Below are positions 1 to 290 of a DNA stretch of 3,815 nucleotides, piece after piece; within the stretch, counting starts at the first letter, position 1, and the number at the start of each line of letters is the position of its first letter. Under the pieces are notes generated by a model. That model did no database searches and had not been told where the DNA came from. It was given only the letters and a program-made list of their open reading frames with translations. Origin of the DNA: Escherichia coli (lineage in GTDB: Bacteria > Pseudomonadota > Gammaproteobacteria > Enterobacterales > Enterobacteriaceae); NCBI RefSeq assembly GCF_003334335.1, contig NZ_QOWQ01000081.1; one strand, 5' to 3'. A program made the position numbers and the translations under genes.

Positions 1-260
1 ACGGTCTGGCGGAGGCGGACAATAACACAGCGGAAAGAGCGCTTCGTGCAGTCTGTCTCGGAAAGAAAAATTACGTGTTCTTCGGTAGCGATCACGGAGG
101 CGAGCGTGGTGCACTGTTGTACGGGCTGATCGGCACCTGCCGGTTGAATGGTATCGATCCGGAAGCGTATCTGCGCCATATCCTGAGCGTACTGCCGGAA
201 TGGCCTTCCAACCGAGTTGACGAACTCCTGCCATGGAACGTAGTACTCACTAATAAATAA
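1..260 (+). CDS. IS66-family transposase (TnpC-type), C-terminal ~85 codons; 5' end outside window
   Basis: Frame 3 is open from the window edge to TAA at 258-260. It reads GLAEADNNTAERALRAVCLGKKNYVFFGSDHGGERGALLYGLIGTCRLNGIDPEAYLRHILSVLPEWPSNRVDELLPWNVVLTNK, matching the conserved C-terminal region of IS66-family transposases as I recall it. The listed 75..260 ORF is just its internal GTG-to-stop segment. Confidence 0.85.
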   Translation, partial: GLAEADNNTAERALRAVCLGKKNYVFFGSDHGGERGALLYGLIGTCRLNGIDPEAYLRHILSVLPEWPSNRVDELLPWNVVLTNK

Positions 261-290
261 GCGTCAATACGGTGCTCCGTTGACGCTTAC
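1..290 (+). mobile_element. IS66-family insertion sequence, right (3') end; rest of element lies upstream of the window
   Basis: Holds the transposase C-terminus (below). Sequence after the stop ends ...CGCTTAC at 284-290, the reverse complement of the GTAAGCG motif I recall as the IS66-family terminus. A perfect 10-bp inverted repeat (258-267 TAAGCGTCAA / 280-289 TTGACGCTTA) sits at the tip. Exact boundary is +/- a few bp. Confidence 0.75.

Follow-up and report, generated by a model that had tools for sequence, protein, structure and literature searches.

The perfect 10-bp inverted repeat at positions 258–289 of a 3815-nt stretch of Escherichia coli DNA (hereafter, the window) belongs to the end of a known, catalogued insertion sequence, and its palindromic character is a lineage-specific twist on that end. 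It is essentially certain that the sequence at 257–290 is the right terminal inverted repeat (IRR) of ISEc43, an IS66-family element inserted in a copy of IS600. Sequence comparison indicates that the self-complementarity of this IRR is lineage-specific and derived, and the palindrome is not needed for transposition. The site is an ordinary mobile-element end that is possibly also a small inward-facing transcription terminator.

The right end of ISEc43 and its insertion site

Positions 1–290 of the window were 100% identical to the 3′ ends of RefSeq elements annotated as ‘IS66-like element ISEc43 family transposase’, and matches to the ISEc43 end were found in 4577 of 5426 complete E. coli genomes. 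The window itself holds only the last 290 bp of ISEc43, and the gene order tnpA-tnpB-tnpC was read from two other loci (L001 and L002), which are annotated with a transposase (tnpA), a TnpB accessory protein and the ISEc43 transposase; the complete copy in L002 is 2541 bp long. On the plus strand, positions 1–257 carry the last 85 codons of tnpC, which encodes the DDE transposase (RefSeq annotation of the 100% matches; open reading frame ending at 260). TnpC homologues matched PF03050, PF13817, PF13005 and PF13007.

An 8-bp direct repeat, TAATGTTC, abuts both ends of the L002 copy (GTAAGCGTAAAG... on the left and ...TTGACGCTTAC on the right), the termini of which read GTAAGCG... and ...CGCTTAC, respectively, and 8/8 target duplications were seen at 12 further IS66-family loci. 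Insertion-free strains (L096) read ...ggacctGACGTATGttgcc, which places the element boundary at window 290/291, and the window from 291 is therefore uninterrupted IS600 orfB. From the L002 duplication and the empty site together, it follows that TAA at 258–260 is the tnpC stop and that the element ends with C290. The sequence-only reading had placed the start of the hairpin at the transposase stop and its end one base before the terminus, and both placements agree with these data. The target site GACGTATG in orfB (291–298) represents one of the two copies expected from an 8-bp duplication, and its partner lies beyond the window. Judging from the duplication, the empty site and the comparison of left and right repeats, the IRR is about 28–34 bp long; the left repeat (IRL) is GTAAGCGTAAAGCC... 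and the reverse complement of the IRR is GTAAGCGTCAACGG..., both starting with GTAAGCG. A plasmid search with the whole window found no full-length context; the insertion context is chromosomal.

The architecture of IS66-family elements and their GTAAGCGT... inverted repeats have been described, and those of Pseudomonas members read GTAAGCGTCC... (PMC12888890). Binding of the beta-clamp by IS66 TnpB/TnpC has also been reported (PMC3971601). ISEc43 has in common with ISKox1, ISCro1, ISEc23 and ISPsk01 the GTAAGCGT tip, the CCGT..TTGAC box and the 8-bp duplication, and IS66-family relatives also match it in the upstream tnpA-tnpB-tnpC genes and in a transposase stop within the IRR. A hairpin at the ends of IS66-family elements was not mentioned anywhere in the literature searched, the older IS679/IS66 primary papers lying outside its scope.

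Several other features lie downstream of ISEc43 in the window. Positions 291–759 are a 3′ fragment of the orfB of IS600 (IS3 family), cut by ISEc43 at GACGTATG. The same fragment in E. coli NCTC86 (L097, 2990–3010 and 290–310) carries an ISCro1-like element at the site corresponding to window 318–325, with the right end TAAATATCAATACGGTTCTGACGAGTCGCTTAC and the duplication GTTGTACC, without a tip hairpin and 27 bp further in; these are thus two independent IS66-family insertions within 27 bp. The minus strand at 803–1672 carries part of the serine-protease autotransporter EspI, which lacks both termini and is annotated as a pseudogene; a 302-aa reading frame is listed at 800–1708, in the same region. 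A decayed IS5-family transposase remnant with frameshifts and internal stops follows at about 1684–2466, with C-homopolymer runs at about 2146–2153 and 2245–2250. An intact 265-aa AraC-family regulator (WP_021523955.1) is encoded on the minus strand at 2584–3381 in very AT-rich DNA surrounded by insertion-sequence debris; by eye, it looks like a horizontally acquired virulence-type regulator of the Rns/AggR kind. Finally, the left end of an IS3 element and the start of its orfA (ATG at 3794) occupy about 3729–3815 and run off the window.

Folding of the terminal repeat

A repeat finder reproduced the two arms noticed in the sequence-only reading, with the same coordinates and complementarity: TAAGCGTCAA at 258–267 and TTGACGCTTA at 280–289, each 10 nt long, 100% complementary and 12 nt apart. 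These 12 nt had been taken for the loop. They do separate the arms, but folding showed that the spacer itself contributes a 4-bp inner stem, ACGG (269–272) with CCGT (277–280), so that the true loop is the 4-nt TGCT. Because of this further stem, the hairpin is a bulged structure of 13 bp on the plus strand and 14 bp on the minus strand, with a 2-nt bulge that offsets the symmetry axes of the inner and outer stems by 1 bp. The fourteenth pair, found on the minus strand only, is a G.U pair at the extreme tip that includes the first nucleotide of the element. Around the hairpin, the window reads ...ACT AAT AAA TAA GCG TCA ATA CGG TGC TCC GTT GAC GCT TAC/GACGTATG..., the slash marking the element boundary.

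We computed folding energies of the hairpin and compared them with those of shuffled sequences. The plus-strand RNA folded at –17.0 kcal/mol (z = –4.4), the minus-strand RNA at –17.9 kcal/mol (z = –3.2) and the DNA at –12.7 kcal/mol (z = –5.0), and in each case 0 of 200 shuffles were as stable. Folding of the transcript 3′ end, which had been proposed as a check, thus gave a stable plus-strand stem. On the other hand, 7.7% of resampled 3.8-kb windows contained a perfect inverted repeat of 10 bp or more with a loop of 3–20 nt, and the 10-bp repeat alone is therefore not remarkable. What lies beyond chance is its exact placement from stop codon to terminus, together with the comparative data below. 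The Rfam 15 covariance models, run against both strands of the whole window, gave no match at E ≤ 1.

Constraints on IS66-family inverted repeats

We assembled 80 loci encoding TnpC relatives of 49–98% identity, with one genome per species, and added 13 loci for relatives of 70–89% identity and 120 metagenomic loci retrieved with a pattern that left positions 261 and 274–283 free. Both ends could be identified in 40 elements. Across these 40 IRL/IRR pairs, the tip GTAAGCGT (IR positions 1–8) was at least 90% conserved, positions 9–18 were variable, and an inner box, CCGTnT(T/G)GAC, occupied positions 19–28 at both ends (CCGT at 19–22 and T(T/G)GAC at 24–28); the inner box was also conserved in 52 right ends. 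In ISEc43, as in IS66 relatives, the transposase stop codon sits inside the IRR.

Set against this anatomy, the inner arm of the ISEc43 hairpin (258–267) consists of the stop codon (258–260), which supplies its first 3 nt, a GC dinucleotide and the box GTCAA (IRR positions 24–28), and the outer arm (280–289) consists of tip positions 2–11, which read GTAAGCGTCAA from outside. Positions 9–11 of the IRR are complementary to the box, and the GC and TAA just inside the box are complementary to the tip. It is because positions 9–11 and these 5 nt became complementary in this way that the whole IRR folds back on itself. Within the 10-nt arms, only G261, T280, T281, G282 and A283 are free to vary, and the rest of the stem is fixed by the stop codon, the inner box and the tip. 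Since pairing partners are fixed by these other constraints, covariation cannot be scored.

Distribution of the palindrome among relatives

Family conservation of the hairpin, a check suggested by the sequence-only reading, was refuted. The terminal 36 nt of the 40 IRRs had a mean z of only –0.5 relative to shuffles, and most family 33-mers folded at –1 to –8 kcal/mol. The outliers were ISEc43 (z = –5.6) and the Sodalis element L023 (z = –3.8), the own left ends of which scored +1.5 and +2.0. Left repeats of the 40 elements were in fact less structured than shuffles (mean z +0.6; Wilcoxon test, P = 3e-4, with phylogeny ignored), the reverse of what the ISEc43 right end shows. In contrast to most IS66 members and to its own IRL, the IRR of ISEc43 is an almost perfect palindrome, as are those of L023 and L025 (Acerihabitans). 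We accordingly rejected the palindrome as a conserved feature of the family.

The closest sister lineages read TAACCG or TAGCCG...TTAACGCTTAC, with 7–8 of 10 complementary arm positions and folds of –3 to –8 kcal/mol, and the ISCro1-like type has 4 of 10. Distinct right flanks were counted in 32/35 and 19/25 cases for hairpin-less types, which therefore transpose without the palindrome; the palindrome is not needed for transposition. That the hairpin might be part of the terminal repeat recognized by the transposase is accordingly right as to its location within the IRR, but the palindrome as such is unsupported as a recognition signal.

Nor is the hairpin a copy-specific mutation, the other outcome that had been envisaged. 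Throughout the ISEc43 lineage the perfect 10-bp stem is fixed: all ISEc43-type copies (L001–L006, L083 and L084) have it, and the identical 33-mer is kept in copies whose upstream 257 nt differ at 9–16 positions. The stem recurs in L023 and L025, which form a separate basal clade with ~55% TnpC identity and have different loops. Recombination is unlikely as the source of the arms common to ISEc43 and L023/L025, as the loops differ and the coding ends differ too (VVLTNK versus LTLSAG/LTIPAE), even though mosaic IS66 elements occur. Across 52 right ends, the longest run of complementarity between the tip and subterminal sequence averaged 5.1 compared with 4.5 for shuffles, a weak excess that a few lineages drive.

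Mosaic elements were also encountered in the sample. In L086, L087 and L094, TnpC is 72–82% identical to that of ISEc43 overall, and the C-terminus and right end come from a more distant group of 58–62% identity; these sequences are evidence for recombination between IS66 lineages. In L184 (minus strand, 181–213), a solo 33-mer, TAGGCGTCAATACGGCCCGCCGTAGACGCTTAC, forms a strong hairpin (–15.8 kcal/mol) in a different inner register and directly adjoins the apparent 3′ end of a tRNA gene. This 33-mer is possibly an orphaned IS66 end. We set L184 aside as a third independent palindrome lineage because it is a solo 33-mer beside a tRNA gene, with no tnpC upstream.

Evolution of the self-complementarity

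In trees of TnpC and of the 600 nt upstream, ISEc43 was sister to the L139/L200 type, and both were nested among lineages with C261. The inferred ancestor, TAACCGTCAATACGGCGCTCACTTAACGCTTAC, folds at –3.4 kcal/mol. The L139/L200 type carries G261 and a tandem AC>CG change at 278–279 that creates CCGT (–11.1 kcal/mol), and ISEc43 adds G282, which brings the fold to –16.9 kcal/mol; four of the five derived substitutions form pairs. When five random substitutions were placed at variable positions, 0 of 15 912 trials reached –16.9 kcal/mol and 0.04% reached –13.8 kcal/mol. Unbiased neutral change is therefore rejected, and this test leaves selection and template-switch mutational bias undistinguished.

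The tandem change at 278–279 produces the exact complement of ACGG at 269–272, and fits a template-switch correction bias well. In quasi-palindrome template switching, an imperfect repeat is perfected by copying of the opposite arm, and tandem changes are a hallmark of the process. ISEc43 resembles such hotspots in its arm-copying changes, including the tandem double, a likeness consistent with this mechanism, which would be a mutational origin and not a function. The palindrome might accordingly have no function, as the by-product of a quasi-palindrome perfected in this manner, with changes tolerated because the positions are not critical for TnpC; we regard this as doubtful, though a serious possibility. 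The IRR architecture already provides 8 of 10 pairs (stop TAA with tip TTA, the CG of GCG, and box TCAA with TT.A), sister lineages already stand at 7–8 of 10, G261 and G282 are all that 10/10 requires, and the tandem change looks templated. The mobility of relatives without the hairpin, the frequency of such inverted repeats in resampled windows and the near-zero family-wide z of the IRR point the same way. On the other side stand the recurrence of the palindrome in at least two distant clades and the preservation of the identical 33-mer despite the upstream differences. Rejection of the random-substitution model also counts against a by-product, though mutational bias would lead to the same rejection.

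Read-in transcription and the minus-strand hairpin

As its most likely function, we tentatively propose that the hairpin could act in minus-strand RNA as an inward-facing intrinsic terminator. A transcript entering from the right flank would read GUAAGCGUCAACGGAGCACCGUAUUGACGCUUA and then UUUAUUAG, with G-C pairs just above three basal A-U/G.U pairs, a 4-nt loop and the U-rich tail UUUAUU. Outside transcription would stop before running antisense through tnpC, and termination would insulate ISEc43 from whatever surrounds its insertion site. In the sense tnpABC RNA, this stem would lie at the 3′ end and could also shield the transcript from 3′ exonucleases.

The two strands differ in what follows the stem. 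The T-rich tail at 243–257 (minus strand; UUUAUUAGUGAGUAC in minus-strand RNA) is encoded by the last tnpC codons, ACT AAT AAA, and scored 3.32 on the minus strand (UUUAUUAG) versus 0.15 on the plus strand (CGACGTATGTTGCCA). As an intrinsic terminator, the plus strand has the hairpin and no U-tract, its flank being arbitrary target DNA. The sequence-only reading was therefore right that no T-tract follows on the plus strand, but on the minus strand the hairpin is followed by TTTATTAG; similarly, its suggestion of an RNA structure affecting readthrough is compatible with minus-strand read-in and finds no plus-strand terminator form. The ISEc43 minus strand resembles known intrinsic terminators in its stable stem, basal A-U/G.U pairs, 4-nt loop and UUUAUU, and differs from them in its 2-nt bulge and in a U-tract that is coding and interrupted by A. 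A scan of positions 1–800 for consensus promoters and terminators called nothing at the hairpin site, as its stem and loop rules exclude bulged stems.

Evidence against the terminator stands beside these features. The U-tract corresponds to the last codons (N-K-stop), is older than the hairpin and is present in hairpin-less sisters too. L023 and L025 have the perfect stem, but a weak minus-strand U-tract (T score 2.2–2.5). Assignment of the strand by wobble pairs, moreover, is contradictory: the L139-type intermediate has C.A on the plus strand versus G.U on the minus strand (–11.2 versus –15.4 kcal/mol), and the wobble pairs of L122/L128 (TAAGTG) and of L184 (TAG) are workable on the plus strand only; the beta-proteobacterial post-stop stem-loop described below likewise has sense-strand G.U pairs. 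Any benefit of the hairpin must also be small, because close relatives thrive without it.

We scanned about 110 nt at each end of the elements for hairpins of –8 kcal/mol or stronger with a T score of at least 3. Among 40 right ends, 8 had such a hairpin facing inward and 1 had one facing outward, and the larger set gave 10 of 52 facing inward; at left ends, they faced inward in 4/40 and outward in 0/40. Shuffled right ends passed the same scan in 12 of 400 cases (3%), and the counts across lineages are not independent in terms of phylogeny. In sequence, the inward hairpins are unrelated: ISEc43 employs its IRR, many Oxalobacteraceae elements a stem-loop after the stop codon, and L033 and L041 a third hairpin. 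This variety suggests repeated pressure on IS66 ends to halt transcription from outside, and such a common selective pressure weighs against a palindrome without function.

Other hairpins were observed at IS66-family ends. Oxalobacteraceae relatives (L035, L039, L040, L043, L053, L056, L062–L064, L066, L069, L071 and L072) have, immediately downstream of the tnpC stop, the conserved stem-loop CACGCCGCT-TCCC-AGCGGTGTG. Its alignment has 90% of cells paired, three compensatory pairs and an invariant loop, and sense-strand G.U pairs occur in 12 of 18 sequences of the beta-proteobacterial post-stop stem-loop. The Oxalobacteraceae structure is usually preceded by an A-run, which gives UUUUUCA on the opposite strand, and in several members its loop and 3′ arm (CCCAGCG) complement CGCTGGG inside the IRR. 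Acidobacterial and some beta-proteobacterial right ends (L049, L060, L067, L073 and L074) carry post-stop palindromes of the GTGTCCAC...GTGGACAC type, and a related TGTCCACAAAT...ATGGACACA motif lies about 55–100 nt inside the left ends of L035, L059 and L071, where it forms inward terminator-like hairpins.

Left-end RNA structures of IS10, IS50 and IS200 neutralize transcripts that enter from flanking DNA; these act on sense read-through, by occlusion of the ribosome-binding site or by termination. Unlike them, the ISEc43 structure sits at the right end, where its target would be antisense read-in; an inward hairpin with a T-tail also occurs at 4 of 40 IS66 left ends.

Alternative roles of the stem

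The stem might instead function in the sense RNA, as a stem-loop at the 3′ end of the tnpABC mRNA that blocks 3′-to-5′ exonucleases or attenuates read-out, so that stability of the transposase mRNA would be independent of context. We consider this rather unlikely, although several observations agree with it: the plus-strand fold is stable (z = –4.4), many relatives carry an unrelated post-stop stem-loop with compensatory changes and sense-strand G.U pairs, and L122/L128 and L184 keep their pairing by wobbles available on the plus strand only. However, the plus strand lacks a U-tract (T score 0.15), the common L139/L200 intermediate is weaker on the plus than on the minus strand, and a minus-strand U-tract is the better explanation for the A-run that precedes the beta-group stem-loop. 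In addition, the stop codon lies inside the stem, and each terminating ribosome must therefore melt it. Because the evidence against the minus-strand terminator stands, the terminator reading still has two live rivals, a sense-mRNA role at the 3′ end and the absence of any function.

A site in double-stranded DNA is a good deal less likely. Here, two inverted tip-like half-sites would serve as a binding site for a TnpC dimer or host protein, or the DNA would extrude a cruciform or single-stranded hairpin, and the right end would differ functionally from the left. TnpC relatives do carry PF13007 (LZ_Tnp_IS66), a leucine-zipper domain, the spacing of 22 bp from centre to centre would place the half-sites on one face of the helix, and the 33-mer, loop included, is identical in copies that differ upstream. 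The arms are also identical in both distant clades, but identical arms are expected because the partners (tip, box and stop codon) are fixed. A dyad for a protein dimer is unlikely since there is an offset of 1 bp between the axes of the two stems, no such dyad exists at the left end and sister elements transpose without one; the offset suits a folded single strand, which is the better reading, and not a symmetric protein site.

Outward −35 boxes in insertion-sequence ends are established for other families, and G282 does turn TTAACG into TTGACG (280–285), a 5/6 match to the −35 box 5 nt from the tip that might contribute to hybrid promoters together with flanking sequence or, at a circle junction, with the left end, but this explanation is highly improbable, as the scan of positions 1–800 on both strands found no promoter, inspection found no acceptable −10 in the IRL at any plausible junction spacing, and G261 and the CCGT inner stem would be left unexplained.

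Discussion

The striking hairpin in this window offers a lesson for annotation, in that it marks the right end, already catalogued, of an insertion sequence very common in E. coli and is not a new regulatory element. What the present analysis adds is comparative: the palindrome is derived stepwise and recurs, and inward terminator-like hairpins occur above chance at IS66 ends.

For the family as a whole, a still speculative proposal, drawn from sequence comparison, is that IS66 elements may repeatedly evolve inward terminators inside their ends, ISEc43 doing so by remodelling its transposase-binding IRR. Such an insulation strategy would keep host transcription out of the transposase operon. 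In ISEc43, the stop and the tip are only 33 nt apart, and the IRR would itself have been remodelled, possibly via template-switch mutations. If the proposal is true, 34 bp would combine a stop codon, a DNA end bound by protein and a terminator acting in RNA. If confirmed, ISEc43 would provide a right-end, antisense-directed example of the shielding of insertion sequences from host transcription.
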